From contig DYIU01000001.1 in assembly GCA_020723485.1 (NCBI GenBank), positions 757,850 to 821,849 of the forward strand: a DNA stretch of 64,000 nt. The letters run 5' to 3'. Both the position numbers and the translations under genes were made by a program. Source of the DNA: Acidimicrobium ferrooxidans. Lineage in GTDB: Bacteria > Actinomycetota > Geothermincolia > Fen-727 > Anoxymicrobiaceae. Below are positions 1,632 to 63,529 of this stretch, piece by piece (position 1 is the first letter of the stretch; each line of letters begins with the position of its first letter). The notes below the pieces were generated by a model that worked only from the letters and a program-made list of their open reading frames with translations, was not told the DNA's origin and did no database searches.

Positions 1632-1686
1632 CCCCCAGGCCTTGCGCCGGAACCAGAAGCCCGGCGGATGGAAAGGCGGCGGCGAG

Positions 1687-2133
1687 ATGCACATCGAGGA
1701 GAAGCTCGAATTGGCCGGCCCGGAAGACATCCAGAGGGAGATGGAGAGGTTCTTCGAGCACGTGGGCCGCTGGAAGCGCCCGGTGTTCTTCTTCGAGAAG
1801 GCGTGGAAGCCGCTCTGCGACGTCTCAGAGTCCGACAGCGAGGTCATCGTGGTCGCCGACCTCGCGGGCGTGACCGTCGACAACATAGACATCCAGGTGC
1901 AGAACAACGTACTGCTCATCCGCGGCATCAGGGGCGAGCCCCCGGGGGCGCCGCGCACCAACTACCACCTCATGGAGATAAGCTACGGGACGTTCGAGCG
2001 GGAGATACCGCTTCCCGTCAGGGTCGATGCCGAGGCCGCCAAGGCCACATACGACGAGGGTTTCCTCGAGATAAGGCTCCCCAAAGCTGCCAAGGAACCG
2101 CCGAAGGGGGTGGACGTCGATGTGTCCACCTGA
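1687..2133 (+). CDS. Hsp20/alpha-crystallin family small heat-shock protein
   Basis: ATG at 1687 (MHIEEKLEL...) chosen inside the longer ORF 1588..2133; alpha-crystallin domain-like sequence (VIVVADLAGVTVDNIDIQVQNNVLLIRGIRG...GTFEREIPLP...EGFLEIRLPK); stop overlaps the lon start. Confidence 0.8.
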   Translation: MHIEEKLELAGPEDIQREMERFFEHVGRWKRPVFFFEKAWKPLCDVSESDSEVIVVADLAGVTVDNIDIQVQNNVLLIRGIRGEPPGAPRTNYHLMEISYGTFEREIPLPVRVDAEAAKATYDEGFLEIRLPKAAKEPPKGVDVDVST

Positions 2134-4579: not shown

Positions 4580-4712
4580 TGTGTGGCCCCGCAGGTTTGA
4601 ATCCCAACGGTTAACTGTATTTGTCACCTGTTGTTCAGGACAACAGGAGTATCGCCCGCAGCGGCTTTCTTGCCCGAGCCTGATTGATTTCCGTGGTCAG
4701 TGACAGCGTTTG

Positions 4713-5831
4713 TCAACAACTGTTGTCAGAGTTATTCAAACCTGCGGCGCCCGCTTGCAGGTTGGCTAGGCGCTCGGCGACGAGCGCTTCGCCGTATTCG
4801 GCCAACTCGTCCATGACCGCCTGGACACCCTCGGTCTGCCTATCGGCCAGGGCATCTGTGGTCTTCCACTCAAGCTCGCGCTTCCTGCGGGCGAAGAACG
4901 CGGCGGCGGTCTCGCTGAACCGGTAAGGGCAGACGAAGAAGTACTTGAGCCCGAGCTCGTTGTCAGGGAACTGTCCACGGGCCTTCCCATTGACCAGGCT
5001 GTCGAGTTTCCTGATCGCTTCGGCGAGCGCCTCGGGTTTCCCGGTGACACCGGCGGCGACGGAATCGGCGAGCAGGTAATCCTGAGAGTCCGGCCGCCGC
5101 AGCCTCCGAACGACGAGCCCTCCAAGGAAGAGGACAGCCGCGGCCCCTGCCAGGAAAGCCACGCCCAGGCCGGTCCTGCCCCCCGCCCCGACCATGGGCG
5201 CCGCGGCGAGTCCGAGCAGGGAGAAGAGCCCCAGGAGACCGTAGGCTGCGAGCTCGAAGCCGAACGTCCCCGGCTTCCTCAGGTAATCCGAGGCGATGAT
5301 GCCCGCGAGCTGGTGCGCCATCACGGCCTCGGCCTCCTTGTAGGAGAGGTCTGACTCGAGCAGGCCGCGGGTCACGCCCACTACGGCCTTCCCTCCGTGT
5401 CCCTCGAAGGTGAGAGCGTTCGGGCTGGAAGAAGCAAGCACGGCGACAGGCGGCTCGTCCACCCCGGCTTTCAACCTCGCCCCGTCGAGCGCGTTCATGA
5501 ACATCGCCAGCCGCCGGGCGTCGTACTCCCCCGCCCTGGACGTGAGCTTCGCGTAGTAGCGCCTGTCGCGCACCACGCCCGGGATATAGAGGAGCGCGAA
5601 GACGACGTCCAGCACAAGCGCCACGGCGGCAAGCGCGGCGACCCGCCCGGCCCCACCGGCAGCGGTCACCAGGGGGCTGAGCTCGGTGCTCCCGGCCGCG
5701 TACGGCACGATGACCAGGACGATGACGGCAATACAGAGCGCCCCCAGCACCGCGAAAAAGGCGCCCCTGGCGGCGCGGGAGCGCCGCCGGTCACGGCTTA
5801 TGCGCGCGGCTAGCTCGCGTTCCAGTTCCAT
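4713..5831 (-). CDS. Hypothetical polytopic membrane protein (HtpX/M48-like layout but HExxH replaced by HQLAG)
   Basis: ATG at 5831 (reverse strand); several hydrophobic helices; segment EAEAVMAHQLAGIIASDYLRK resembles the M48 active-site helix but lacks the HExxH motif. Confidence 0.5.
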   Translation of the reverse strand: MELERELAARISRDRRRSRAARGAFFAVLGALCIAVIVLVIVPYAAGSTELSPLVTAAGGAGRVAALAAVALVLDVVFALLYIPGVVRDRRYYAKLTSRAGEYDARRLAMFMNALDGARLKAGVDEPPVAVLASSSPNALTFEGHGGKAVVGVTRGLLESDLSYKEAEAVMAHQLAGIIASDYLRKPGTFGFELAAYGLLGLFSLLGLAAAPMVGAGGRTGLGVAFLAGAAAVLFLGGLVVRRLRRPDSQDYLLADSVAAGVTGKPEALAEAIRKLDSLVNGKARGQFPDNELGLKYFFVCPYRFSETAAAFFARRKRELEWKTTDALADRQTEGVQAVMDELAEYGEALVAERLANLQAGAAGLNNSDNSC

Positions 5832-6010
5832 GCCGGTAGTCTAGCAGAACGCCGCTTGCCTGAAGGTACTGCCCCCCGTCCCCGGAACCAGGAGCGCGCA
5901 GCGAAGGAACGCGCGGCTCGCGCGAGGCCGAGCAGGAGGTACCGAGCGTTGCCATGCAGGGCGCGCCTTTGCGATATGATACCGGGAGTCGCGTAGCAAC
6001 AAGGAGAGCG

Positions 6011-6751
6011 ATGGGTGACGGCGACCGGTACTCGATAGAGACCCGCGGGCTCACTAAGCGATACGGTAAGTTCACGGCAGTGGACGGGTTCGACCTGCGC
6101 GTCGAGCCGGGCGAGGTATACGGCCTCCTCGGACCCAACGGCGCAGGCAAGACCACCACTATCAAAATGCTCTGCGGCCTCCTGAGGATGACCAACGGGG
6201 AGGCCCGCCTCCTGGGAGAGAGCGTCCCTGACAAGAAGATATCCTCCCGGCTCGGCTATATGCCCCAGGAGACAGCGCTCTACGAGGGGCTTACGGCTCA
6301 CCAGAACATCGCGTTCTACGGACGGGTCTTCGGGCTGACGCGCACACAGATAAACGACCGCGAGCGCCAGCTGCTCGAGTTCGTAGACCTCACCAGGTGG
6401 CGCGACGAGCTGGTACAGAACCTGTCCGGCGGGATGAAGCACCGCGTGTCGCTCGCGTGCGCACTCATCCACCAGCCCCCGCTGCTCTTTCTGGACGAGC
6501 CCACCGTGGGGGTGGACCCCGAGCTTCGCGCGTCGTTCTGGGAGTACTTCGATGAGCTGAAGGCCGGCGGGGTCACGATACTCATTACTACGCACTACAT
6601 GGACGAGGCAAGCCACTGCGACAGGGTGGGATTCATGCGGAGCGGAAGGCTGATAGCCGAGGGGACCCCCCAGGAGATACTGCGGGAAGCGGGGGCGTCG
6701 TCGCTGGAGGACGCGTTCCTCGCCCTGTCGAGGGAGGCGGACCGGCGATGA
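6011..6751 (+). CDS. ABC transporter ATP-binding protein (ABC-2 exporter type)
   Basis: ATG at 6011 preceded by AAGGAGAG; Walker A GPNGAGKTT; ABC signature LSGGMKHRVSLA; Walker B LLFLDEPTVGVD. Confidence 0.88.
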   Translation: MGDGDRYSIETRGLTKRYGKFTAVDGFDLRVEPGEVYGLLGPNGAGKTTTIKMLCGLLRMTNGEARLLGESVPDKKISSRLGYMPQETALYEGLTAHQNIAFYGRVFGLTRTQINDRERQLLEFVDLTRWRDELVQNLSGGMKHRVSLACALIHQPPLLFLDEPTVGVDPELRASFWEYFDELKAGGVTILITTHYMDEASHCDRVGFMRSGRLIAEGTPQEILREAGASSLEDAFLALSREADRR

Positions 6752-7890
6752 AAGCCCCACGCTTCCTGGCGGTGACCAGACGGATATTCCTGGACCTCAA
6801 GAACGACAAGCGCACACTCGCGCTCATCTTCATAGCCCCGATATTCGCGATGTTCGTGTTCGGCCTCGCTTTCAGCGGCGAGGTGAAGGACGTAAGGGTG
6901 GAGGTCGTGAACCTCGACAAGGGCGCTCCGGGCCCGGTGCCCGGCACCACGGTCTCGATACCGGAGAAGGTGCTCTCGAACATCGACGACGAGACCCTGG
7001 ACCTGCACGACGAAGCTGACCTGGACGCTGCCATCCAGCGTGTGAAAGACGGCGACGCCTACGCGGCCATAGAGTTCCCGGAAGGGCTTACCGCCGGCGT
7101 GATGGCACAGATGCAGGGCCAGCCGGGGGCCGGCCAGGCCGAGGTGAAGCTCTATCTCGACCAGAGCAACGTGAACGTCGCAAACGCCGTCGTGCAGGAG
7201 TTGAACCAGGCGCTCCTCGAGACATCGAAGGAAGCCGGCATCGAGCCGCCGGTCACAGTCGACAGCATCGCCATTTACGGCAAAGGGGCCAAGTTCATCG
7301 ACTTCTTCGTGCCCGGCATCATGTCGTTCGTGGTGTTCATGCTCACCACCCTGCTGACGCTGATGTCCTTTGTGGGCGAGCGCACCTCTGGGACACTCGT
7401 CAGGATGCTCGCGACCCCCCTCAGGGAGAGGGACATCGTGATGGGGTATGCCGTCACGTTCAGCATCATCGGGATCGTCCAGTCGTCGATACTTCTCGCG
7501 ATAGGCATCCTGGTCTTCGACATAATCATCGTCGGGAACGTGCTGCTCGCCCTCCTCGTGATCGCCCTGCTCGCGGTGGTCTCCCAGGCCCTGGGCATCC
7601 TGCTGTCGAGCATGGCCAGGCGCGAATCACAGGTGATCCAGTTCTTCCCGTTCATCATCCTGCCCGTCTTCCTCCTCGCAGGCATCTTCTGGCCCCTGGA
7701 AGCGATTCCGTCCTGGCTGAGACCTTTCTCCTACCTGGTTCCACCCACGTACTCGGTTCAGGCGTGCCGCGCGGTCATGCTGAAGGGCTGGGGCATCTCC
7801 CAGATATGGGTGGACATAGTAGCCCTGCTGGCCTTCGCCGCGGTGTTCCTCTCTCTGGCGACGGCCTCCCTCAAGGTCCGCAAAGGCTGA
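6748..7890 (+). CDS. ABC-2 family transporter permease
   Basis: ATG overlaps the stop of the ATPase gene; N-terminal TM helix, large extracytoplasmic loop, then multiple C-terminal TM helices, typical of ABC-2 permeases. Confidence 0.8.
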   Translation: MKAPRFLAVTRRIFLDLKNDKRTLALIFIAPIFAMFVFGLAFSGEVKDVRVEVVNLDKGAPGPVPGTTVSIPEKVLSNIDDETLDLHDEADLDAAIQRVKDGDAYAAIEFPEGLTAGVMAQMQGQPGAGQAEVKLYLDQSNVNVANAVVQELNQALLETSKEAGIEPPVTVDSIAIYGKGAKFIDFFVPGIMSFVVFMLTTLLTLMSFVGERTSGTLVRMLATPLRERDIVMGYAVTFSIIGIVQSSILLAIGILVFDIIIVGNVLLALLVIALLAVVSQALGILLSSMARRESQVIQFFPFIILPVFLLAGIFWPLEAIPSWLRPFSYLVPPTYSVQACRAVMLKGWGISQIWVDIVALLAFAAVFLSLATASLKVRKG

Positions 7891-8019
7891 CCCCCGGTTT
7901 AGGCGCGTTTCAGGTCGCGCGGCATTTCGCCGATGAAAATCAAGGGTGGTCAAACCGCTGCTCCCGTTTACTGTGCCGGCACCAGCCCGATTGCGGCTGC
8001 AGGACCTGAGGGGTATTCG

Positions 8020-11000
8020 ATGGATGTCTTCGCTCGTCACAAGATGCTTTTTGTCGTTCCAGTGATAGCCGCAGCCGTCTGTATTGTGCTTACGGCAACC
8101 GGGCTGATAGTCCCGCCGGTGACAAAGGCGGCCGACCTCAACCAGGGCGACGTCGCCCGACTCCTCCAGAAGACCTGGTACATGGCGGAAGGCTACACCG
8201 GCGGCTCGTTCCAGACCTGGGTCGCGGTGCAGAACCCGGGGGCCCAAAAGGCCAACGTCTCGATGGAGTTCCAGGTGCCCGCGGGACGTCCGGCCCCCGC
8301 CCCTTACGCGTTCGAGCTGCCTGCGAAGACCAGGAAGAGCGTCAGGCTCGACGACATACCGGGACTCGAGAACACCGAGGTGTCCACCAGGGTCAGCGCC
8401 GACGTGAATATCTATGCCCAGCGCTCGATGTACTTCGACGAGAACGGCAGGCAGGGCGGAAGCAGCACCATGGCGGCGGCCATACCCGACTTCGAGTGGT
8501 ACCTCGCGGAGGGCTACACCGGCGGCACGTTCGAGACTTTCGTCTGCATCCAGAATCCCGGACCTGACACCTGCAAGGTAACGATGAGCTTCAACCTGCT
8601 GGCCGGCGGCGCCGCCGACCCGTACGCCTTTGACCTGCCCGGCCGCACCCGGCGGACGGTCAAGCTCGATGACCTGCCGGGGCTCATGGGCACGGACGTC
8701 TCCACCAGGGTCTCCGCCACCCAGCCCGTGGTGGTGGAGAGGGCGATGTACTACGACTATTTCGGGAAAGACGGCGGGGACTGCTCGCTCGGCCAGACCA
8801 GCACCGATACGGAATGGTACATCCCCGAGGGTTACACGGGCGATTCCTTCGACACGTACGTGCTGGTGCAGAACCCGGGAACCGAGGAGGCCGCCGTAAG
8901 GCTCAACTTCCAGCTCTCCGGAGGGGAGGACGGTGAAACGCGCGCGTTCAAGATGGCGCCGGGAACGCGCCGGACGGTGAAGCTCGACGAACTCCCCGGG
9001 TTGGACTCCGCCGAGGTCGCGACGGTCATATCCTCGGATAAGCCCGTTGTCGCGGAGCGGGCGATGTACTTCGACCGCGCCGGAAGCGACGACGGCCATT
9101 CCTCGCCGGCCAGCGATTCCATAAGCGACGTGTGGCAGGTCCCGGAGGGATGTACGAGCGACGGCTTCGAGACCTACTTGAGCGTGCAGAACCCCGGCGA
9201 CTCCCAAGTCGAGGTGACGCTCGAGTTCCAGCCGGCGCCTGGTTACGAGATAGAACCCTACAAGTTCGAGGTTCAGGCGGACGGGCGCGAGAGCGTGTCC
9301 CTCAACCGGATTGACGGTTTCCCCGAGACGGACGTCTCGACGACCGTGCGGGCCACCGCTCCCGTGATAGTCGAGTCCTCGATGTACTACGACCGAGTGG
9401 GAATGAACGGCGGACACAGTTGCCTGGGGGTCATCCCCAACACCCTGATGCCGAACGGGGTCATGCTGGACCAGGCGAGCGAGGCGCTCGTGACCTCGGC
9501 CCCGGACGGCCAGGTCGTTTTCAGCTCTTCCAACGACCTCATCGACTCCATCGAGGTGGACGACGTGGTCTGCGGCATGCCCTGTGAGGGCGCGCCGAGC
9601 GGGTTCATGAGGAAGGTGAAGGAGGTCCAGCACGCGGGCAGCGTGGTGACGCTCATCACCGAGCAGGCGGCCCTCCAGGAGTTCGTCAGGTACGGTTTCT
9701 TCTACGGCACCCACGACCCGGCCGGGGGCGCCCGGCAGGGCGGCTTCGACGTCACGGTCCCGTTCAACGTCGACCTTTCCTCTTACGGGAACATAAAGGG
9801 CGAGGTCTCCGTCGGCGTCAGCGTCGACATCTCGATACACATCAAGTGGAAGGGCTGGTGGATATTCAAGGTACCCGTCGGGTTCACGTTCAGGATGGCG
9901 GCGGGGTTCCAGCAGTCGGCGAACTTCACACTGACCGCCGGGGACAACTTCACGCTCGACAAAGAGGTGAAGATCAAGACGTTCTACCTGTCTCCGATAG
10001 ACGCGGGGCCGCTGGTGTTCTTCCCGAGGGTGAGCATCTACGTGGGCTTCACCGGCAACTTAGCCAGGGGAACGGTCTTGTCGTGCGGTGAATCCCTGTC
10101 CGCGCAGGCGGGCTTCGGGTACGACGACGGCTGGTACACCATATCCAACTTCGACCCGGGTGCCTCGGCGGACGCGAGCCTGCCGTACGCCTCCATGGAC
10201 GCCAAGCCCTACATCAGGGAGGCGCTCGAGTGTCTGCTCTACGACATCGTGGGGCCGTACATCGACGTGATGCAGTACATCAGGCTCCACTCGGACCCGG
10301 CCGCCGACCCGTGGTGGGTGGTGTACGCCGGTGTGCAGGCCGACGGCGGGATAGACATAGACCTGCTCATCTGGACCCTGAAGTGGCACGGGAAGATATA
10401 CGGGTACGAATGGCAGATCAAGAGCGCCCCCCCGAAGCCGAAGATTACCGGGATAAACCCCAACCCGAGCGCGACCGGGACGCAGGTGACGCTGAGCGGT
10501 TCGAGCTTCGGGGGCGCCAAGAGCCCGAGCTGGTACGTGACGTTCGGGGGGACACGTGCGTCCGAATACGGGCCCTGGTCCGACGGTTCAATAACGTGTA
10601 CGGTGCCGGGCGGCCTGTCCGGCCGGGTGACGGTGCAGGTGTTCAATGACGGAGGGTTATCAGCGGGGGCGGATTTCGGAGTGCAGCCCCACATAGGCGG
10701 CGTCTCGCCGCCATCCGGTAAAACCGGCTCCAACGTGACGGTCACCGGCACGTCCTTCGGCGCCTCGCGAGGCAGCTCGTACGTCTGCTTCAACGGGGTC
10801 GGCTCCCCGGGGTACTCCAGCTGGTCGGACTCCAGCGTGACCTGCGAGGTCCCTGCCGGCATCTCGGGCGTGGCGAACGTCACAGTGACAACCTCCGGCG
10901 GGGAGTCCAACTGGTTCCAGTTCAACGTGATACCCGACCTCGATGCTGTCACCCCTGCTTCCGGAACGATAGGGAGCGAGGTCAAGCTGACGGGCAATGC

Positions 11001-13977
11001 CTTCGGGGCGACTCGGGGCGGCTCTTACGTGACGTTCGGCGGGGTACAGGCGACCCAGTACACCGGCTGGGCGGACGGCGAGATACGCTGCCTGGTGCCC
11101 GCCGGAGTGTCGGGGACGGTCGACGTGACGGTGACAACGCCGGGAGGCACTTCGAACGCGGTCAAGTTCGGCGTGGCCCCGCACATCGACGGGCTCTCGC
11201 CCGGGTCCGGGACCGTCAACACCACCGTTACCATCGTCGGCAGCGGGTTCGGCCCGGCGCAGGGTGACTCCTACGTCAAGTTCGACGGAGTGAAGGCCGT
11301 GGCGTATGCATCCTGGTCTGACGGTCAGGTGGTCTGCAACGTGCCGTTCGGGGCATGGGGGATAACAAACGTCACCCTGGTCACCGGCGGAGGCACCTCC
11401 AACGGGCAGCGGTTCGTTGTGGTGCCGCACCTGGACATCATGGACCCGCAGTCGGGGATCGTAGGCAGCACCGTTACGCTGACCGGCAGCGCATTCGGGC
11501 CGACCAGGGGAAGCTCATACGTGATGTTCGGCGACACAAAGGTGACCACCTACACCAGTTGGAACGACGTCAAGATAGTCTGCAAGGTGCCCCTCGGGGC
11601 GGCCGGGCCGGTCCAGGTCGGCGTAACGACTGAAGGAGGTGCCTCCAACACGATGGGCTTCAGCGTCGTTCCCGACGTGGACGACGTGGACCCGAACGCC
11701 GGGGTCGTCGGCTCGCAGGTGACGCTGACCGGCACCGGTTTCGGCGGCTCCAGGGGGGACTCCTCCGTGACGTTCGGCAGCGTCCCGGTTACCGACTACG
11801 ACAGCTGGACCGACACGAAGGTGGTCTGCCACGTCCCGGTCGGCGCTTCGGGGAACGTGCCAGTGGTCCTGACGACCGCCGGCGGCTCTTCCGCGCCGCT
11901 CTACTTCAACGTCATACCACGTGTCGACGGGGTCGACCCGGGGTCGGGAGTGGTCGGGACCGCGGTCACGATGGCCGGCGCCGGCTTCGGTGACACCCAG
12001 GGCGACTCATTCGTGGCGTTCGGCGGGGTGAAGGTGGTGGACTACCAGTCCTGGGCGGACAACCAGGTAGTGTGCCTGGTCCCGCTGGGGGCGCACGGGG
12101 ACACAAGCCTGACGGTCACGACCGGGGGCGGCACCTCCGCCGGAGCCGACTTCAAGGTGATACCGAAGATAGACGGCATCGACCCGGCGGCAAGCCAGGC
12201 CGGGACCCAGGTCACGATAAGCGGCAGCGCGTTCGGCGACGACCAGGGGACCTCGTTCGTCACGTTCGGCCCGTTCACCGTCACGGACTACGTGTCATGG
12301 TCCGATACGCAGGTCGTCATCGAAGTCCCGAACGACGCGTTCGGGCAGGTGCAGGTCAGCCTGACCACGGACGGCGGCGAGTCGAACCAGGTCGGCTTCA
12401 ACGTGCTCCCCTACATCAACGACGTCCTGCCGCCCTCCGGAGGCATGAGCACCACGGTGAGCGTGGAAGGAAGCGGCTTCGGCACCTCCAGGGGGGACTC
12501 GATGGTCCTGTTCGGCACCACCGAGGCGGCCAGGTACACCTCCTGGTCCGACAGGGTCATAAAGTGCGTCGTCCCCGTAGGGCCGACCGCCGGGACCGTC
12601 CGGGTGGTGACCTCGGGAGGCACGAGCAACGGCGAGGACTTCACAGTATTCACGCCGACCTGGTACCTGTCAGAAGGAACGTGCGCCTGGGGTTTCAGCA
12701 CTTACATAACGATAATGAACCCCAACCCCGAGGCGCTTACCGCTTCGGTCACGTACATGATCCCCGAGGGCGCGGGCAAGGCCGGCGGCGGGGTCCCGCC
12801 GATGAAGGTGGACCTCCCGCCGAACAGCCAGACCACGATAAACCCGATGGACTACCTGAAGTTCGAGACCGACTTTTCCACGCGCGTGGATTGTCTTGAG
12901 GGGAAGATGATCGCCGTCGACAGGACGATGCAGTGGACCGGCGCGGGAGCCCCATCGTTCGAGAAGCAGTGCTCGGTAGGGACGGTGGCACCGGCCACCC
13001 ACTGGATGCTGCCCGAGGGCTCGGCGCTCTGGGGCTTCGAGACGTGGCTCACCCTGCAGAACCCGGGTGACGCACAGGCGAACTGCGAGGTCACCTACAT
13101 GATTGAGGGCGGCGAGCCCCGCAAGGTGACGCACAAGCTCGCGCCGAGGTCGCGGACGACATACGGACTGGTCGAGGAGGTCGGCCGGGTGGACGCCTCC
13201 GTCGAGGTAGACTCCGACCTGCCCGTCATCGCCGAGGGGGTCATATACAGGAACTCCCGCCGCGAGGGCAGCTCCTCTGTCGGCACCACGCTCCCGGCCC
13301 ACGGCTATTACGTCGCCGTGAAGGGCAGGGGCCTCTCGCACGACCAGTTCCTGGCGGAGGGCACCACCAGGGAAGGGTTCACCACCTTCCTGGAGCTGCA
13401 GAACCCCAACGCCGAGGCCGGCTGGGTCCGTGTCCAGTACATGACCGAGGACGGCGTCGTGACCCAGCCGGAGTTCACCATGCCGCCCATGTCACGCAAG
13501 ACGATCAGGGTGAACGACGTGCTCCCCGGCAGGGATTTCGGGATACACGTGCACGGCCAGCACCCGGTCGCCGCGCAGAGGACCATGTACTGGGGCGCCG
13601 GGACGCCGGCGGGCGAGGCGACGCACGGGACCATCGCGATGACCGACCTGCACAACGCGTTCTACTTCCCCGACGGGCAGACCTCCAACGGGTGCGAGAC
13701 GTACACCGTCCTCCAGAACCCGAACAAGGGAGCGGTCTGGGTGGAGGTCAGCTACCTCTCCGCCGAAGGCGATGTGCTGTCCCGGTTCAAGGTGGAAGTG
13801 CCGCCGGGCTCGCGGCGCACTCTCAACATGGCGGACAAGGTCAAGGACCGCAGGGCCTCGGTGCTCGCGCGCGTCGTCTGGAGCGAGCAGCGCATCATGG
13901 CCGAGCGTGTCATGTACTGGAACAACCGCGGCGCCGGAGCGTGCTCCATCGGAGGTTTCGAGGACAGCCTCCCGTAG
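8020..13977 (+). CDS. Giant secreted repeat protein (~1985 aa): 4 type-A repeat modules, a unique middle region, 9 tandem IPT/TIG domains, 4 type-B repeat modules
   Basis: ATG at 8020 preceded by GAGGGG, giving a signal-peptide-like N-terminus (MDVFARHKMLFVVPVIAAAVCIVLTATG); the ORF is open from 7933. Type-A modules begin WY[ML][AP]EGYTGGxFxTxVxxQNPG and end ERAMY[YF]D; nine 82-aa repeats match the IPT/TIG pattern (P.I.G..P..G..G..VT..G..FG...G.S.V.FG........W.D..I.C.VP.G..G.V.V.V.T.GG.SN); type-B modules begin W[YM]L.EG[TS]..WGF.T[WY][IL]...NP. Confidence 0.8.
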   Translation: MDVFARHKMLFVVPVIAAAVCIVLTATGLIVPPVTKAADLNQGDVARLLQKTWYMAEGYTGGSFQTWVAVQNPGAQKANVSMEFQVPAGRPAPAPYAFELPAKTRKSVRLDDIPGLENTEVSTRVSADVNIYAQRSMYFDENGRQGGSSTMAAAIPDFEWYLAEGYTGGTFETFVCIQNPGPDTCKVTMSFNLLAGGAADPYAFDLPGRTRRTVKLDDLPGLMGTDVSTRVSATQPVVVERAMYYDYFGKDGGDCSLGQTSTDTEWYIPEGYTGDSFDTYVLVQNPGTEEAAVRLNFQLSGGEDGETRAFKMAPGTRRTVKLDELPGLDSAEVATVISSDKPVVAERAMYFDRAGSDDGHSSPASDSISDVWQVPEGCTSDGFETYLSVQNPGDSQVEVTLEFQPAPGYEIEPYKFEVQADGRESVSLNRIDGFPETDVSTTVRATAPVIVESSMYYDRVGMNGGHSCLGVIPNTLMPNGVMLDQASEALVTSAPDGQVVFSSSNDLIDSIEVDDVVCGMPCEGAPSGFMRKVKEVQHAGSVVTLITEQAALQEFVRYGFFYGTHDPAGGARQGGFDVTVPFNVDLSSYGNIKGEVSVGVSVDISIHIKWKGWWIFKVPVGFTFRMAAGFQQSANFTLTAGDNFTLDKEVKIKTFYLSPIDAGPLVFFPRVSIYVGFTGNLARGTVLSCGESLSAQAGFGYDDGWYTISNFDPGASADASLPYASMDAKPYIREALECLLYDIVGPYIDVMQYIRLHSDPAADPWWVVYAGVQADGGIDIDLLIWTLKWHGKIYGYEWQIKSAPPKPKITGINPNPSATGTQVTLSGSSFGGAKSPSWYVTFGGTRASEYGPWSDGSITCTVPGGLSGRVTVQVFNDGGLSAGADFGVQPHIGGVSPPSGKTGSNVTVTGTSFGASRGSSYVCFNGVGSPGYSSWSDSSVTCEVPAGISGVANVTVTTSGGESNWFQFNVIPDLDAVTPASGTIGSEVKLTGNAFGATRGGSYVTFGGVQATQYTGWADGEIRCLVPAGVSGTVDVTVTTPGGTSNAVKFGVAPHIDGLSPGSGTVNTTVTIVGSGFGPAQGDSYVKFDGVKAVAYASWSDGQVVCNVPFGAWGITNVTLVTGGGTSNGQRFVVVPHLDIMDPQSGIVGSTVTLTGSAFGPTRGSSYVMFGDTKVTTYTSWNDVKIVCKVPLGAAGPVQVGVTTEGGASNTMGFSVVPDVDDVDPNAGVVGSQVTLTGTGFGGSRGDSSVTFGSVPVTDYDSWTDTKVVCHVPVGASGNVPVVLTTAGGSSAPLYFNVIPRVDGVDPGSGVVGTAVTMAGAGFGDTQGDSFVAFGGVKVVDYQSWADNQVVCLVPLGAHGDTSLTVTTGGGTSAGADFKVIPKIDGIDPAASQAGTQVTISGSAFGDDQGTSFVTFGPFTVTDYVSWSDTQVVIEVPNDAFGQVQVSLTTDGGESNQVGFNVLPYINDVLPPSGGMSTTVSVEGSGFGTSRGDSMVLFGTTEAARYTSWSDRVIKCVVPVGPTAGTVRVVTSGGTSNGEDFTVFTPTWYLSEGTCAWGFSTYITIMNPNPEALTASVTYMIPEGAGKAGGGVPPMKVDLPPNSQTTINPMDYLKFETDFSTRVDCLEGKMIAVDRTMQWTGAGAPSFEKQCSVGTVAPATHWMLPEGSALWGFETWLTLQNPGDAQANCEVTYMIEGGEPRKVTHKLAPRSRTTYGLVEEVGRVDASVEVDSDLPVIAEGVIYRNSRREGSSSVGTTLPAHGYYVAVKGRGLSHDQFLAEGTTREGFTTFLELQNPNAEAGWVRVQYMTEDGVVTQPEFTMPPMSRKTIRVNDVLPGRDFGIHVHGQHPVAAQRTMYWGAGTPAGEATHGTIAMTDLHNAFYFPDGQTSNGCETYTVLQNPNKGAVWVEVSYLSAEGDVLSRFKVEVPPGSRRTLNMADKVKDRRASVLARVVWSEQRIMAERVMYWNNRGAGACSIGGFEDSLP

Positions 13978-18034: not shown

Positions 18035-18204
18035 TCGAGCTCACCTCCTCGGCGCGTGCTGACGGACGGCCCTCCGCCGGCTCCGCCCCGCCTCCACCCG
18101 GGAGCAGCTTGTGAGAAATACCATTCGGGCGGGCCCCGACGATTCCTGCATCCCCGAACAATCCAGGCGTTACGCTCTGGAAAGACCACGCCAGGCGAAG
18201 GCTG

Positions 18205-18233
18205 GTTGAATATCACATAAATATGTGTTATAC
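18205..18233 (+). promoter_or_regulatory. Candidate sigma70-like promoter of vapBC with a palindrome in the spacer
   Basis: TTGAAT (18205-18210), 17-nt spacer, TATACA (18228-18233); the spacer contains the palindrome CACATAAATATGTG (18213-18226); the region is locally AT-rich. Confidence 0.4.
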
Positions 18234-18272
18234 ATGATTTTGTGTATCCATGAGATCTGGGAGTAAGCTGAA

Positions 18273-18515
18273 ATGGCTAAGAGGAACATAACCCTCGCCC
18301 TTCCCGAGGAGCTAATCAAAAAGGTAAAGGTACAGGCCGCGAGGGAGGGAAAGTCGATAAACATGTACGCGCGGCAGGCCCTGGAGGAACGCCTGAGGGA
18401 GCGGTCGGGTTACGCCGCAGCGATGAGGCGACAACTGTCAGCCATGGAATCGGGCGCTTACATGGGAACAGGGGGGAAGGTGGAGCTCACAAGGGACGAA
18501 GTGCATGAGCGGTAA
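18273..18515 (+). CDS. vapB: Ribbon-helix-helix (CopG/VapB-like) antitoxin
   Basis: 80 aa; N-terminal RHH-like segment (NITLALPEELIKKVKVQAAREGKSINMYARQALEERL); overlaps the downstream PIN gene by 11 bp. Confidence 0.7.
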   Translation: MAKRNITLALPEELIKKVKVQAAREGKSINMYARQALEERLRERSGYAAAMRRQLSAMESGAYMGTGGKVELTRDEVHER

Positions 18516-48457: not shown

Positions 48458-51211
48458 CTAGTCGGTTCCGCTCACCCCGAGTGACGCGTGCGCAGCCTGC
48501 CGGTACGTCCCGTCCGCGCCGTGCCAGTACATCGCTCTCTCGGCTATTACCGGCGCATCGGAGGTTACCAGGGTGGAGACGCTCCACTCACCGGGCAGCG
48601 TGTCGGCCACGCTGAGGGTCTGCCTGCCTCCCGGCTCGAGGGGCGGCAGAGGCGGGCCGGGCACACTCCCCTCGAGCGTCATGTACGTTATCAGCGGGTT
48701 GGCAACTTCGGTCCCGGCGTTGAAGATTGTGATCCAGGTCTCGAAAGAGCCGAAGGTGCCCGAGCCCGTTGAACCTTCGGCGAAGCACCACTCCACCGCA
48801 CCGGCCGTGGCGCCGATCGACCCGTGCGCCGCCTGCCGGTAGGTCCCGTCAGAACTGTGCCAGTACACTGAGCGCTCCGCGACTATCGGTACGTCTGATG
48901 CCACATGCGTGGAGAAGCTCCACTCACCGGCAATGCCGACGTTGTACGTCTGCCTCGTACCCGGCTCCAGCGGGGGAACTATGTGCCGGGTCGCGGATTC
49001 AATGTTGACGTTTGCCGTCTCGGTCCCCGGGTTCTGAACGGTGATCCAGGTCTCGAACGAGCCGTGGCCGTCCGAGCCCGCGGAGCCCTCCGCGAAGTAC
49101 CAATCCGTCGCCCCGGCTGTGACCCCGATGGAATCGTGCGCCGCCTGCCGGTAAGCCCCGCCGGAACCGTGCCAGTAAACCGCCCTCTCCGCGACGATCG
49201 GTACGGTGGAGCTGACCCGGGTTGAGACGCTCCATTCGCCGGGAACCGTGTCCCCAACGCTGAACGTCTGCCTGGTCCCGGGCTCCAGAGGCGGCACGGC
49301 CGGTCCCGCTACCTCGCCCTCCGGAGTCATGTAAGTCATCACCGGGAGGGCGGTTACGGCTCCCGGATTCTGCAGTGTGATCCAGGTCTCGAACGAGCCA
49401 CGCGAGTCAGAGCCGGTGGAGCCTTCAGCGAAGTACCAGTCGGACGCACCCGCGTTGACCCCGATGGAATCGTGAGCCGCCTCGCGGTAGCCGCCGTCAG
49501 CGCCGTGCCAGTACTGCGCCCTTTCGGCAGCTATCGGCACGTCCGAGGTGACATGGGTGGACACGCTCCACTCATCCGGGACCGTGTCACCCACCGAGTA
49601 CGTTTGCCTGGTCCCCGGCTCCAGGGGCGGGACGGGCGGTCCGGCCACCTCGCCGCCCGGCGTCATGTAGGTGATCACCGCCTGCGCCGACTGGTTCCCC
49701 GGGTTCTGAAGGACAATCCATGTCTCGAAAGACCCACGGGCGTCAGCGCCGGTGGAGCCCTCGGCGAAGTACCAGTTCTGTGCCGTATCCGGGAGCTCGG
49801 GGTTGTTTACGACCGTCTGTGTATCGCTCGCGGTCTTGTAGTAACCGGTCTGCTCGTCCTTTATCTCGGCGATGTTTATCAATAGGACGTCCCCGAAACG
49901 CGGGAACTGGTCCTGCGCCTTGAGGGTCAGCCTGTAGCTGAACTCGCTGGTGGCCGAACCGCCCTCGAGCCGCCCGACCTGCCATCGGACCTTCCCGCCG
50001 TCGATTACGCTCCCCCCGTCCGTGATGCCGGTCACGCTCTCCACGAGGCTCTCGTCGTAGTCGTCCATGACCGCTACCTGGTTCGCGGCGGTCTGGCCGC
50101 GGTTCTCGAAGCTCACGGTGTACTCCAGGGTGTCCCCGGGCGAGATGAGCCCGTCGCCGTCGCGGTCGACGGCCAGCCGCCCGCTTTTCTCGATATTGAA
50201 GTCGACCATCGCGGCGAACCAGAACCAGTCGAAGTAGAAATCGGCGTAATACCCGTCGTCGTCCGTGTTGACGAGGTCGACCGAGTACCTGGCTGTGTCC
50301 GTGGCGACGTGCCCGGCCAGAGGGTAGGTCCTGTCGTCCCAGCTGTTCCCGTCCGTATCCTCGCAGACGTCGTCCTGGTGGAAGTCCGGAGCGTTGCGGT
50401 TGCCCCACTCGTCATAGGAGCGGAAGTCGTAGGACATTGTGTCCGGGGCGTGGCCTTCGGATGTCAGGATGCCCTTGTAGGCGGAGGGGAGTGTCGGCCT
50501 GGTGGTGAAGTCCATGGCGGAACAACTCGCCTGGTGATGCGAGTCCATGATGTTACAGCCGTCGGCGATGCACACCTCGCCCATGGTGATCGACTGGTGA
50601 GTGAAGACTATTACGAGGCTTGCCCCCCACCACGCCTTCAGGGGAAGGAGGCTGAGCGGCCCGGTCTCGACGTGGTACATCCGGTTGGGCTCGTCCCCGA
50701 TGAGGTCGGTGACCTCCGCGCGGTACAGGCGGCGGTGGTTGACGCCGTTCATCATCTCGTAGCCGACCTGGTCGACGTCGCCCCCCTCGTCCCTCCAGCC
50801 GGTCAGGGGCGTGCCCTCGAACGTTATCTCGCCGGACCCGGCCGGCGCCTGGTCCCTTCCCGGTATGGAACGCCCGTCGGTCCCGAAGTTCCCTCCCCAG
50901 TAGAGGAAGGCTCTCTTTATCTCAGCACCTTCCGGCACATGGTTTATCGTGGCGTTACCGGGGGACATGTCGATGTACATCTGGCTCCTGTCCGGGGCCT
51001 CGTGCATCCCGATACCCTCGGAAGTTATCCCCACGTTACCGGCAGCCCTGAGGAAGACGGTGGTGGAGCCGTCCTTACCGACCGACCAGTCAATGGTCTC
51101 GTCGTATGACAGGGCCGACTTGTCCGCCGCAGCCGCCGGCCCGTACGCGCCGATGATGAGACAGGCCAGTATGAAAACCGCCGGCAGGACGATAAGGCGT
51201 CTTCTCAACAT
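48458..51211 (-). CDS. Secreted repeat protein (917 aa), paralogue of the giant protein: unique N-terminal half plus 4 type-A repeat modules
   Basis: ATG at 51211 with AAAGGA RBS; signal peptide (MLRRRLIVLPAVFILACLIIGAYGPAAAA); C-terminal half holds four ~110-aa modules beginning [WC][YF]FAEGS.G....GSFETWI.[VLI].N.G and ending AER[AS].YWH. Confidence 0.8.
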   Translation of the reverse strand: MLRRRLIVLPAVFILACLIIGAYGPAAAADKSALSYDETIDWSVGKDGSTTVFLRAAGNVGITSEGIGMHEAPDRSQMYIDMSPGNATINHVPEGAEIKRAFLYWGGNFGTDGRSIPGRDQAPAGSGEITFEGTPLTGWRDEGGDVDQVGYEMMNGVNHRRLYRAEVTDLIGDEPNRMYHVETGPLSLLPLKAWWGASLVIVFTHQSITMGEVCIADGCNIMDSHHQASCSAMDFTTRPTLPSAYKGILTSEGHAPDTMSYDFRSYDEWGNRNAPDFHQDDVCEDTDGNSWDDRTYPLAGHVATDTARYSVDLVNTDDDGYYADFYFDWFWFAAMVDFNIEKSGRLAVDRDGDGLISPGDTLEYTVSFENRGQTAANQVAVMDDYDESLVESVTGITDGGSVIDGGKVRWQVGRLEGGSATSEFSYRLTLKAQDQFPRFGDVLLINIAEIKDEQTGYYKTASDTQTVVNNPELPDTAQNWYFAEGSTGADARGSFETWIVLQNPGNQSAQAVITYMTPGGEVAGPPVPPLEPGTRQTYSVGDTVPDEWSVSTHVTSDVPIAAERAQYWHGADGGYREAAHDSIGVNAGASDWYFAEGSTGSDSRGSFETWITLQNPGAVTALPVMTYMTPEGEVAGPAVPPLEPGTRQTFSVGDTVPGEWSVSTRVSSTVPIVAERAVYWHGSGGAYRQAAHDSIGVTAGATDWYFAEGSAGSDGHGSFETWITVQNPGTETANVNIESATRHIVPPLEPGTRQTYNVGIAGEWSFSTHVASDVPIVAERSVYWHSSDGTYRQAAHGSIGATAGAVEWCFAEGSTGSGTFGSFETWITIFNAGTEVANPLITYMTLEGSVPGPPLPPLEPGGRQTLSVADTLPGEWSVSTLVTSDAPVIAERAMYWHGADGTYRQAAHASLGVSGTD

Positions 51212-51429
51212 GACAGGTTCCTTTCTCTCCAGCCTTCGCTCATCAGGGCGCTCAGGCCGACCTTTACCACGCGGGGATGTTCTTCACCAGCGCGGGAGCA
51301 CCCGCCGCCATCGCACTCGTCATCATCCGCCAGCGGGTAGCGCGGGAGGGAGCATTCCCCCGACCACGGCCCGGAGTACGCCCTGAGGTACTGCGCTATC
51401 CAGTTCCGCGGGAGTGGTTCGTACTTCAT
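51205..51429 (-). CDS. Small hypothetical Cys-containing protein (74 aa)
   Basis: ATG at 51429 preceded by GAGGAG-type RBS; four cysteines; stop region overlaps the start of the downstream secreted-protein gene. Confidence 0.35.
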   Translation of the reverse strand: MKYEPLPRNWIAQYLRAYSGPWSGECSLPRYPLADDDECDGGGCSRAGEEHPRVVKVGLSALMSEGWRERNLSC

Positions 51430-51645
51430 CGCTTCTCCTCGTGGTTGGCAGGGGTTTCGCGCATTTGCCCTCCTGTGACTCGCCGCCGCCGTAAGAGTGC
51501 ACCTTCCCGTTTCAGGTTATGTAGTGAGTCAATAATGCGTACTAGCAATATAGGTTGGACAGTGGGTTAATTTCAATAGCCGCAGCGGGAATTGTTGATA
51601 AAATACCCTGAATAGGGGATTATCTGACGTTCACTTAATGCAGTA

Positions 51646-51693
51646 TTGACAAAAAACCATCTGAAATATATTATTAATTATCCAATTAATTAA
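51646..51693 (+). promoter_or_regulatory. Canonical sigma70-type promoter with ATTAATTA operator-like motifs upstream of the second TetR gene
   Basis: TTGACA (51646-51651), 17-nt spacer, TATTAT (51669-51674); two ATTAATTA motifs (around 51673-51680 and 51685-51692) overlap the -10 and predicted start; embedded in a ~160-bp AT-rich divergent region. Confidence 0.55.
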
Positions 51694-51702
51694 GGAGTTC
51701 AA

Positions 51703-52326
51703 ATGGCGAGGACGCCGGCAGGCCCGGGACCGGAAGAGAGGAAGAAGCAAATACTGGAGGCCGCAATCGAGGTGTTCGGCCAGAAGGGATACGGCAACGC
51801 GACCGCCGTGGAGATAGGTGAGAAGGCGGGTGTATCATCAGGGACGGTATTCCACTATTTCGGGAACAAGAAGGAGCTGTTCCGCGAGGCTCTGAGGAAC
51901 TGCGCCGTCGATCTTCGGGCGGCGATGGAAAGGGGCAGCCCACCCACCGACGACATAAAGACGTTTCTCAAGATGACGTCGAGGAACTTCTTCGCGTATC
52001 TTCTCGAGAACCCCATGAAGGTGAAGATCCTCTTTCACAGCCCCGAGACCCTCGCGGACCAGGACATCAAGTACGAGTACCGGCGCGTGATGGAAGACCT
52101 CTACCAGTTCGTGTACTCGATGCTCGAAGGTGCCCGGAACAGGGGAGAACTGCCGGAGGACCTCTATATCCAGGGAATCGCCGAGTACATGCTGGGTTTT
52201 AGCTTCTTCACGTCATATCTCTCATTCCTGGGGATAGAGTGGTTCCAGGGCGGCGGGGTATTCCGGTTTACCGACGGCGACTACCTCATCGACTACCTGA
52301 CCAGGCCGCAGGCCGGCCGGGCGTGA
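51703..52326 (+). CDS. TetR-family transcriptional regulator
   Basis: AAGGAG RBS; helix-turn-helix region (KKQILEAAIEVFGQKGYGNATAVEIGEKAGVSSGTVFHYFGNKKELF). Confidence 0.8.
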   Translation: MARTPAGPGPEERKKQILEAAIEVFGQKGYGNATAVEIGEKAGVSSGTVFHYFGNKKELFREALRNCAVDLRAAMERGSPPTDDIKTFLKMTSRNFFAYLLENPMKVKILFHSPETLADQDIKYEYRRVMEDLYQFVYSMLEGARNRGELPEDLYIQGIAEYMLGFSFFTSYLSFLGIEWFQGGGVFRFTDGDYLIDYLTRPQAGRA

Positions 52327-52346
52327 CGCCGTCACCCGAGAAGGAC

Positions 52347-52377
52347 GAAACCCCCGGTACAGATGACCGGGGGTTTC
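52347..52377. terminator. Hairpin with 10-bp GC-rich stem between convergent genes (candidate bidirectional terminator)
   Basis: GAAACCCCCGG-TACAGATGA-CCGGGGGTTTC, immediately after the TetR stop and before the stop of the minus-strand membrane-protein gene. Confidence 0.55.
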
Positions 52378-52398
52378 GAATGAAGGTTCCGGATCGCG

Positions 52399-53094: not shown

Positions 53095-53344
53095 TTAAAG
53101 CCCCCTTCCGCCGGGGCGACCTCGCCCTCCGGCACCAGCTGAGCAGGCAAACACCTGCCACAATGATATCGTGCATCTCCAAAGATAACTTTACACGCGG
53201 GCCGCCGCGTTCCTCCACGGGGCCTGGAGCGCGTTCTTACCGAAGGTAAAATCCTGCGTGCGACAGCGGCGGATATGCACGGGGCGAGCCCACTCTTATA
53301 TAATTTGACACTGGCCTGATTGTATTTAGTGGAGGGAGTTGTCA

Positions 53345-61961: not shown

Positions 61962-63359
61962 CTAGTCGTCCCAGGCGCCGATGGTCTCCTCCCCCGAGGT
62001 GCGGGCGGAAAGAGACCCCGCCTCGGTCCATATGTAAGTGGCGCGCTCGCAGATTATGTTCTGTCCGGGGGTGAGGCTCCTCACCCTGATCGCATACCTG
62101 CCCGGCGTGGTCATGGTGTCCGCCAGGTTGTAGGTGGCTCGCGTGTTGGCAAGGACAGTCCTGTTGATGGTCGCGTCCGGAAGCACGCCCTCACCGTAGT
62201 ACTTCATCTCGATGTTGACGTCCACCGGATTTGGATTCTGCACGCAGGTCCAGGTCTCGTACAGCAGTCCGCAGTTGCCTCCGGGGAGGTACCAGTAGGC
62301 GTGAGACCCGTCAACCCCTATGGAGTCGTGGCCCACCTCGCGCCAGATGCTTCCGGAGCCCCAGTACATCGGTCGCTCGGCGAGGAGCGGGAGGGTGCCC
62401 GACACCTTGATGGACAGGTCGGTGTTGGGCGCCTGCTCGTTGACCTTGATGGTCTCGCGTGTCTGGGGGGCCATCGGGAATGGAGCCATTACGATCTGGC
62501 CGCTCGGCTTCATGTAGGTGATGGTCACCTGGTTCACAGCCGCGTTGGGATTCTGGATGCACAGGAATGTCGTGAACCCCCAGGCCGTCGTTCCCTCGGC
62601 GAGGAAGAAGTCGTTGGCCGGGGTAGTGGCGCCGACCGACTCGTGACCCATCCTGCGGGAGTCCCTGTACATGGACCTTTCGCAGATTATCGGCTGGTTT
62701 CCCAGCACCTGGATGGAGGCGTCCGCCGAGCCTATGTCGTTCGTCATGTTGTAGGACGCGCGAGAATTAGAGGGGACCGTCTTGTTGACGGCGAACGGCC
62801 CGAAACCCTCGATCATGTAAGTGATGATGATGTCTGTAGCTGCCACGTTCGGGTTCTGCACCGTTAGCCAGGTCTCGAAGCCCCATGCGCTGGAGCCCTC
62901 CGGGAGATACCAGATGTTGTTCGGGGCGGTGACGCCTACAGATGAGTGGGTCTCCAGGTTCTGCTCCACTTCGGAGCCCGGCCCACCCATCCAGAACATA
63001 GTCCGATCGACGGCAATAGTCCTGGTCGGGTCGAGGCACTCCACCAGGGTGCTGAAATCCCGCTGGCCAACTGCAGTCAGGGGATTTACGGTCACTCGGC
63101 TCTCGGAAGGCATCGTGAACGGGGGCTGGACGAGCGGGCCCAGGTCCGCGGTCATGTAGGTTATGCGGATCTGGACGTCAACGGTGTTCGGGTTCTCTAT
63201 GTTGATGTAGGTGCCGAAGCCCCAGGCGGTAGTGCCTTCTGCGAGGTACCAGGTCGGGAGCGGGCCCGCCACGGCCGCCCCTCCGCCGAGGAGCATTAGC
63301 GATGCCGCGCCGGCGCACATCATAAGGGCTACCAGAATCGAGATCATCTTCCGTGCCAT
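61962..63359 (-). CDS. Secreted repeat protein (~465 aa) made of signal peptide plus 4 type-B repeat modules
   Basis: ATG at 63359 (MARKMISILVALMMCAGAASLMLLGGGAAVAG); the upstream part of the ORF (to 63470) is translated palindromic element; four ~110-aa modules beginning WYL[AP]EG[TS].AWGF.T[YW][IL]...NPN. Confidence 0.75.
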   Translation of the reverse strand: MARKMISILVALMMCAGAASLMLLGGGAAVAGPLPTWYLAEGTTAWGFGTYINIENPNTVDVQIRITYMTADLGPLVQPPFTMPSESRVTVNPLTAVGQRDFSTLVECLDPTRTIAVDRTMFWMGGPGSEVEQNLETHSSVGVTAPNNIWYLPEGSSAWGFETWLTVQNPNVAATDIIITYMIEGFGPFAVNKTVPSNSRASYNMTNDIGSADASIQVLGNQPIICERSMYRDSRRMGHESVGATTPANDFFLAEGTTAWGFTTFLCIQNPNAAVNQVTITYMKPSGQIVMAPFPMAPQTRETIKVNEQAPNTDLSIKVSGTLPLLAERPMYWGSGSIWREVGHDSIGVDGSHAYWYLPGGNCGLLYETWTCVQNPNPVDVNIEMKYYGEGVLPDATINRTVLANTRATYNLADTMTTPGRYAIRVRSLTPGQNIICERATYIWTEAGSLSARTSGEETIGAWDD

Positions 63360-63440: not shown

Positions 63441-63529
63441 GCACAATGGGGTCAGGTCATTTTGTTGCATTCAAGGAGTCTGGGATGAGTATGGTCAAAA
63501 TGCAACAAAATGACCTGACCCCATTGTGC
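63441..63529. repeat. Full palindromic element of the GGGGTCAGGTCA family with extended arms (~28 bp, 31-nt loop)
   Basis: Core arms GGGGTCAGGTCATTTTGTTGCA (63448-63469) and TGCAACAAAATGACCTGACCCC (63501-63522); the palindrome extends outward to GCACAATGGGG...CCCCATTGTGC; lies between two minus-strand genes. Confidence 0.8.

Follow-up and report, generated by a model that had tools for sequence, protein, structure and literature searches.

Does a TetR-family regulator that is encoded back to back with a secreted repeat protein control that protein, or does it in the first place control itself? The question is raised by the intergenic region at positions 51430-51702 of a 64,000-nucleotide stretch of Acidimicrobium ferrooxidans DNA (hereafter the window; contig DYIU01000001.1 of assembly GCA_020723485.1), which lies between a tetR gene on the plus strand and, on the minus strand, a small open reading frame (ORF) followed by the gene for a 917-aa secreted repeat protein. 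A first-pass annotation had proposed that TetR may control the surface protein. The reading that we find best supported, and that we hold to be moderately probable, is that the region combines a putative operator for TetR self-repression with a divergent promoter which is regulated independently. On this reading tetR would be monocistronic and transcribed from a plus-strand promoter of the sigma-70 type (TTGACA-17-TATTAT), and a TetR dimer, or a pair of dimers, would most likely bind the palindrome TTAATTA-N6-TAATTAA and block RNA polymerase, which would result in negative self-regulation; repression would be relieved by the binding of a ligand to the C-terminal domain of TetR. On the minus strand, TTGAAA-18-TATATT would drive expression of the small ORF and the 917-aa protein, with a leader of about 75-110 nt preceding them; this promoter would most likely be controlled via a central conserved element and a further block that covers the region where its transcripts start.

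Composition and conservation of the intergenic region

The GC content of 51430-51702 is 0.43, against a window mean of 0.645, and the region is the GC minimum of the entire 64 kb when segments of 100, 150, 200 or 273 nt are compared. The AT-richness is confined to the right-hand 193 nt (51510-51702; GC 0.337; z = -7.0 against all 193-nt segments), and both promoters and all the conserved blocks described below lie within this AT-rich core. The next-lowest 193-nt segment elsewhere in the window has a GC content of 0.456, while the left 80 nt of the region (51430-51509) have the genome average of 0.65. The first-pass description of a stretch far more AT-rich than its surroundings was thus borne out. 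Orthologous intergenic regions have GC contents of 0.33-0.36, compared with 0.57-0.63 for their own contigs. The distance from the start of tetR to the start of the small ORF is 273 bp in the window, and the corresponding distance is 239-260 bp in the orthologous loci.

An exact look-up found no record of the window's own TetR. A protein search returned only a handful of TetR relatives, from which four further independent loci were obtained, with TetR identities of 89% (L005/6), 79% (L007-9), 75% (L001-4) and 73% (L010). Among the five loci including the window, the four-fold degenerate sites of tetR are near saturation, since just 2 of the 50 sites show no variation and the other loci match the window at 36-47% of them in pairwise comparison. 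In the alignment of 51510-51702, by comparison, 75 of 208 columns (36%) are invariant, and they are clustered in discrete blocks. On the tetR side the blocks comprise the plus-strand -35 hexamer and the arms of the palindrome together with the ribosome-binding site. On the minus side they are TTCAATAG, which holds the -35 hexamer, AATATAG, which holds the -10 hexamer, and AGTCAATAATGAGTA in the predicted start region. Further blocks are TGAC-N5-ACTTAATGC and a 23-bp central element. The divergent intergenic region between the DUF975 and NMO genes (53095-53338) could not be aligned between the window (244 nt) and L001 (86 nt), which indicates that the conservation at the tetR control region is not general to intergenic DNA of this clade. 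The DUF975-NMO region has a GC content of 0.43 over 100 nt near 53292 and carries a TTGACA at 53305. As judged from the sequences, 51430-51702 is a real, conserved divergent (back-to-back) control region, of a kind that is ordinary for bacteria and that belongs to an already very well known type of system.

A candidate operator in the tetR promoter

The predicted tetR promoter (51646-51674, plus strand) consists of a -35 hexamer TTGACA at 51646-51651, a 17-nt spacer and a -10 hexamer TATTAT at 51669-51674. It agrees with the consensus at 11 of 12 positions, lies where the first-pass annotation had placed it, and would start transcription near 51681. In L001, L005, L007 and L010 the same position is occupied by TTGACA/T-17/18-nAnnAT. 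Across the five loci the -35 hexamer is invariant at five of six positions (L001 has TTGACT), and not one of the 17 spacer columns is invariant. A promoter scan of 1.8 kb returned 4 promoter-like sites, with 0.9 expected from shuffles. The ribosome-binding site of tetR, AAGGAG (51692-51697, plus strand), is located 5 nt 5' of the ATG at 51703, and (A)GGAG is kept in the orthologs.

Two ATTAATTA motifs had been noted at the -10 and start region in the first-pass annotation. They are present at 51673 and 51685, they are the only exact copies in the 64 kb, and they turned out to be the halves of a conserved 20-bp palindrome, TTAATTA-TCCAAT-TAATTAA (51674-51693), which we regard as a candidate TetR operator. 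The palindrome starts on the last base of the tetR -10 hexamer, covers the predicted transcription start and ends within the ribosome-binding site; at the sequence level, a palindromic candidate operator is thus found over the regulator's own promoter and start. No other match was found in the window, even with up to three mismatches. Its arms are invariant or nearly so in the five loci, and in L001 it is a perfect 20-bp palindrome, TTAATTAACTAGTTAATTAA. Arms of at least 10 bp, as in L001, occurred in only 0.3% of shuffles. An extended 23-nt inverted repeat at 51657-51706 was also considered and was rejected, as it is not conserved in the orthologs.

Downstream of tetR, a 13-bp GC-rich hairpin at 52346-52378 (centroid energy -25.5 kcal/mol, z = -2.9) lies in the gap between tetR and DUF975, which are convergent. 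It lacks a U-tract and is likely to act as a two-way terminator. Because this hairpin separates tetR from DUF975, tetR is probably monocistronic.

The palindrome travels with tetR in distant orthologs

A profile search added orthologs with 41-53% TetR identity. TetR-profile scans of genomes and metagenomes were swamped by the generic helix-turn-helix pattern and yielded one useful locus, L013, from a metagenome-assembled genome (MAG) of Actinobacteria. The neighbours of tetR differ among these loci: L013/L173 have a BTAD/tetratricopeptide repeat (TPR) regulator and a protein with a SEC-C motif, L177 has a BTAD protein together with a membrane-anchored protein of 274 aa, L011 has a protein of the same 274-aa family, PlsY and a major facilitator superfamily (MFS) transporter, and L179 has short-chain dehydrogenase/reductase (SDR) and epimerase genes. 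The pairing with the secreted protein, which is kept in the five close loci and in L174, is absent from L011, L173, L177 and L179. In L011, L012, L173, L177 and L179, a palindrome rich in TAATTA or TTAA is located between a -10-like hexamer and the tetR ribosome-binding site, for example TTAATTA-GG-TAATTAA in L012 and AACATTTAACTAAC-TG-GTTAATTTAATGTT in L173. As the palindrome stays while the neighbours differ in orthologs of 42-53% identity, the element that travels with tetR is the one in its own promoter, as would be expected of a self-repression operator.

The 274-aa proteins of L011 (868-1692) and L177 (3383-4207) are encoded on the same strand downstream of tetR, in loci whose TetR is 53% and 47% identical, respectively, to that of the window. 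In each, an N-terminal membrane anchor is followed by an acidic linker and then by a C-terminal domain that is conserved; Pfam matches neither protein, and their mutual identity is 39%. A relationship to the DUF975 protein of the window was rejected on comparison. The 274-aa protein is a possible target of TetR in these lineages.

Several points weigh against self-repression through this palindrome. First, when the AT-rich core was shuffled with its dinucleotides preserved, 14% of the shuffles gave a perfect inverted repeat with 7-bp arms (P = 0.14); the palindrome is therefore not significant from the window alone, and its credibility rests on its conservation. Secondly, the conservation counts come from five independent close sequences including the window, which are few, and part of the conservation of the palindrome could stem from constraint on the promoter, the discriminator or translation initiation. 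Thirdly, promoters were scored against the sigma-70 consensus, which may not fully apply to this host, and it is from sequence that we infer where transcription starts, that TetR binds the palindrome and represses, and what the other blocks do. Finally, among the distant orthologs the arms are spaced by 6, 2 or 0 nt, so that the same binding mode is impossible for all of them, and in L174 no such palindrome was found within 80 nt of the annotated tetR start. The residues of the recognition helix are changed in the distant orthologs, which fits the variation in arm spacing but limits the transfer of one binding model.

The minus-strand promoter and further conserved elements

The predicted promoter of the secreted-protein operon (51547-51576, minus strand) has a -35 hexamer TTGAAA at 51576-51571, an 18-nt spacer and a -10 hexamer TATATT at 51552-51547, with 10 of 12 consensus positions, and transcription would start near 51540. 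TTGAAw-18-TATATT is present at the homologous position in all four orthologous loci. In each of the five loci, exactly 70 nt separate the -35 starts of the two divergent promoters, and no insertion or deletion lies between them.

Between the two promoters lies the central element ATAAAATACCCTGAATAGGGGAT (51598-51620; ATAAAATAsCCTGAATAGGGGAT), 23 bp with a weak dyad CCCT-N4-AGGG, at about -70 from both predicted starts. Twenty of its 23 positions are invariant in the five loci. With up to three mismatches allowed, the element has no second match in the window, and the fetched loci carry it at the orthologous position and nowhere else. It is a candidate site for a second regulator. This element and the nucleotide-exact spacing of the two promoters are the mildly unusual features of the region. 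Two further blocks were distinguished. The block TGAC-N5-ACTTAATGC (51626-51642) lies just upstream of the tetR -35 hexamer and is kept in four of five loci, L001 being different. The block AGTCAATAATGnGTA ... AATATAGnTTGGAC (51527-51560) spans the minus-strand -10 hexamer and the first 15 or so nucleotides of the predicted minus-strand transcript; it has no resemblance to the TTAATTA half-site and is a candidate operator of the minus-strand promoter.

The predicted 5' leader of the minus-strand operon (51430-51540, minus strand; about 75-110 nt) contains GGAGGG at 51473-51468 and an ATG at 51464. These form the strong ribosome site and the start of a 12-codon upstream ORF, MRETPANHEEKR (51426-51464, minus strand), whose TGA stop overlaps the ATG of the next, 74-aa ORF (ATGA). 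In L001, L007 and L010 the ATG homologous to 51464 is the true start of the first gene. The upstream ORF might have been left behind by a gene replacement, or it might serve translational coupling.

Does TetR control the secreted-protein operon?

The alternative that survives best is that TetR directly represses or otherwise controls the operon of the small ORF and the 917-aa gene, acting through the ATTAATTA palindrome by looping or in cooperation with a protein bound at the central element, or else using a site so degenerate that it escapes recognition. Five close loci retain the divergent pairing in spite of an exchange of the first minus-strand gene (a 74-aa ORF or a 514-aa gene), and the fixed 70-nt spacing suggests that the two promoters are coupled. 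In L174, moreover, a TetR of 41% identity is divergent to a full-length ortholog (46%) of the 917-aa protein, with a second DUF11 protein downstream. TetR regulators in general mostly act on their divergent neighbour (PMC3511530). Against this, synteny in the close clade extends over more than 8 kb, so the pairing there carries little information, and orthologs at 42-53% identity have other neighbours, namely the BTAD regulator, the SDR and the 274-aa membrane-anchored protein. As to L174, none of the cis elements of the window is shared, and its tetR and secreted-protein genes are more than 900 bp apart. The L174 locus (976-9969) has further genes for a DUF6159 membrane protein and a PAS protein, and its downstream DUF11 protein is a multi-DUF11 protein of 1285 aa; the gene types are those of the window, in a rearranged order.

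The geometry of the region argues in the same direction. The palindrome is centred at 51683.5, about 143 bp upstream of where the minus-strand transcript is predicted to start, and at this distance a simple blocking of the minus-strand promoter is ruled out. The arrangement known from the TetR/TetA paradigm, an operator over the promoter of the divergent target, is not found here, judged from the predicted minus-strand start. A second operator or half-site was found neither in the window at up to three mismatches, nor as a conserved half-site in the intergenic alignment, nor in the fetched loci. In Streptomyces, TetR regulators situated less than 200 bp from a divergent neighbour repress that neighbour, while beyond 200 bp three of four tested regulators did not regulate it (Ahn et al. 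2012; PMC3511530); the start-to-start distance exceeds 200 bp in the window and in the orthologs alike. Of the first-pass proposal, therefore, the divergent control region, the conserved promoter and a palindrome of the type bound by TetR dimers were retained, and the inference of control was not, with the candidate operator lying some 143 bp from the predicted minus-strand start. Direct control of the secreted-protein operon by TetR is only partly supported by these sequence comparisons, and we consider it unlikely, though it is the alternative to be taken most seriously.

The most novel possibility apart from self-repression with an independent divergent promoter is that the central element is bound by an activator that fires both promoters together, in which case the self-repression of TetR would be a built-in brake on a surface-protein switch. 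We regard this as quite unlikely. If it were true, the switch would have been retained in this uncultivated lineage while the first downstream gene was swapped between a beta-propeller repeat protein and a 74-aa Cys-containing ORF.

Other explanations of the conserved sequence

It might be argued that the palindrome is not a repressor site at all, and that it is kept as a -10-proximal or discriminator sequence and as an AT-rich, unstructured leader which aids promoter opening and translation initiation, while TetR binds elsewhere or has only a remote target. The element does overlap the -10 hexamer and the ribosome-binding site, AT-rich palindromes arise readily in AT-rich DNA, as the shuffles indicate, and the central 6 nt are asymmetric in four of the five loci. 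Constraint on a promoter or leader, on the other hand, needs no symmetry. Dyad symmetry is nevertheless held across the loci, reaches a perfect 20-mer in L001 and recurs with different sequences in the distant orthologs, and no alternative palindrome is conserved in the region. This explanation seems to us very unlikely.

With a composition so extreme for the genome, the AT-rich stretch could also serve mainly as the target of an Lsr2/H-NS-like silencer associated with the nucleoid, or be left over from foreign DNA. Such explanations do not account for block-wise conservation with variable spacers and a spacing fixed to the nucleotide; in addition, the flanking genes are host-like in GC content at third codon positions (GC3, 0.75-0.84), and the region is found at the same, syntenic place in all orthologs. 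A foreign origin is unlikely, and this explanation as a whole is extremely improbable.

A cis-regulatory RNA (riboswitch, thermosensor or leader) or a small RNA, for which the leader of about 75-110 nt and one possible compensatory change in L010 that keeps a 5-6-bp TTGACT/AGTCA pairing could be cited, is largely refuted and hardly to be entertained, because this pairing is absent from L001 and L005, the best-conserved blocks lie upstream of both predicted starts, Rfam gave zero matches for the region at E values up to 10 (and for the whole window at gathering scores), RNAalifold found no conserved structure in five minus-strand leaders (-0.92 kcal/mol), and the single fold of the window's leader was no better than shuffles (z = +1.2).

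The TetR protein and related systems

The tetR gene (51703-52326, plus strand) encodes a protein of 207 aa with a TetR_N domain (PF00440, residues 17-63, E = 3.2e-17, 62.5 bits against a cut-off of 24). The AlphaFold model is all-helical, with ten helices (predicted local distance difference test, pLDDT, 83; predicted template modelling score, pTM, 0.78). A Foldseek search of the PDB gave 367 matches at E <= 0.001, and the best 50 of the 367 are all TetR-family chains. The TetR_N helix-turn-helix domain of the sequence, and the all-helical C-terminal ligand-binding and dimerisation domain of the model, identify the protein as a member of the TetR family.

The ligand class could not be read from the fold: FasR, several FadR, TtgR and HapR score about equally in Foldseek and are indistinguishable by E-value. 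Membership in the FadR or FasR family was rejected, as the NCBIfam scores were 47.8 bits against a cut-off of 200 for FadR and 47 against 330 for FasR. From the modelled fold, a hydrophobic or acyl-type ligand is only a lead. By sequence, the nearest solved relative is TM1030 of Thermotoga maritima (profile E about 2e-19; PDB 1z77, 2id6 and 1zkg, and ligand-bound 4i6z and 4i76), which shares the TetR fold and can be aligned over residues 13-166. The identity is only about 27-30%, however, and the subfamily of the window differs from TM1030 by an additional invariant C-terminal motif (W180 F181 ... F189 G192 D193 D197 T200) beyond the usual helices; residues 180-200 are modelled, with low confidence, as a small hairpin and a helix. 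Given the low identity to TM1030 and the equal ranking of FasR, FadR, TtgR and HapR, neither an operator nor a ligand can be transferred from these relatives.

In Tn10, TetR(B) and tetA are separated by an 81-bp intergenic region in which two 15-bp operators overlap both promoters. The window resembles this system in its divergent TetR-family gene and in a palindromic candidate operator that is placed in the shared intergenic region, over the regulator's own promoter, as for self-repression. It differs in having one 20-bp candidate palindrome, on the tetR side only, within a region of 273 bp and about 143 bp from the other predicted start; moreover, the neighbour here is a secreted repeat protein, and that in Tn10 is an efflux pump. 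IcaR/icaADBC and the HapR/LuxR type are examples in which a TetR-family regulator acts on genes for surface polysaccharide or secreted proteins and not on pumps; IcaR is divergent to its target, and sites of the LuxR/HapR type are AT-rich. Both are PDB matches to the TetR of the window and are likewise linked to surface or secreted products. The sequence relation to them is at family level only (E 1e-12 or weaker), and their regulator sites lie next to or on the target promoter, unlike the site described here. A parallel in layout exists with the Streptomyces regulators SGR5269, SGR6912 and SGR3402, which are divergent to their neighbours at a separation of more than 200 bp. For SGR6912, DNA binding upstream of its own gene was shown, and reporter assays gave no regulation of the divergent neighbour by any of the three (PMC3511530). 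Those regulators were tested experimentally, whereas the case presented here is drawn from sequence, and the operators are unrelated (GC-rich in Streptomyces, TTAATTA here).

The secreted-protein operon and other features of the window

The minus strand leads, as first described, into a small Cys-containing ORF and the secreted repeat protein gene, and the coordinates and domains agree with that description. The small ORF (51205-51429, minus strand) encodes 74 aa with 4 Cys, has a GC3 of 0.75 and has a homolog in L005. Substitutions between the window and L005 number 9, 14 and 32 at the first, second and third codon positions, a bias to the third which suggests that the ORF is probably coding. 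It is also an orphan: the protein database search gave no homolog but itself, and there was no Pfam or NCBIfam match.

The gene for the 917-aa secreted repeat protein (48458-51211, minus strand) overlaps the 74-aa ORF by 7 nt. The protein has a signal-peptide-like N-terminus, a DUF3344-like N-terminus, a DUF11/CARDB-like domain and four DUF5719-like repeats of about 110 aa. Orthologs were found in L001 (66%), L005 (82%) and L174 (46%, full length), and in L001 and L005 the ortholog comes next after the first gene of the operon. The 74/75-aa orphan ORF is the first minus-strand gene in the window and in L005. In L001 (1890-3434), L007 (1-663) and L010 (2-436), the first gene behind the minus-strand promoter encodes a 514-aa beta-propeller repeat protein with TIGR04275-type repeats, and the control region is kept with either first gene. 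The 74-aa ORF was also considered as a remnant of the 514-aa gene, and no similarity between the two was found.

Three paralogous regions with DUF5719-like repeats (8170-9432, 12661-13953 and 61974-63251), 30-35% identical to a repeat of the 917-aa protein, are present in the window, and no TTAATTA palindrome was found near any of them. Just upstream of the paralogous gene at 61974-63251 (minus strand) there is a perfect 30-bp inverted repeat, GCACAATGGGGTCAGGTCATTTTGTTGCAT (63441-63470 and 63500-63529), with a 29-nt loop and no other copy in the window; it might act as a regulatory hairpin or a terminator, or represent a small mobile element. Second in AT-richness within the window is the spot at 18190-18290 (GC 0.38 over 100 nt). 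It contains a palindrome, CACATAAATATGTG, which precedes a small ORF, MAKRNITLALPEELIKKVK..., resembling a ribbon-helix-helix antitoxin or regulator. A tRNA search of the window found none.

Significance

The results are useful for annotation and leave the understanding of TetR systems unchanged. They supply a concrete candidate operator (TTAATTA-N6-TAATTAA) and a promoter map for an uncharacterised TetR subfamily that was found only in metagenome-derived genomes, and they mark two further conserved DNA elements beside genes for large surface proteins (DUF11/DUF5719). They also correct the inference that a regulator adjoining a gene controls that gene, since the anatomy of this region points first to self-regulation.

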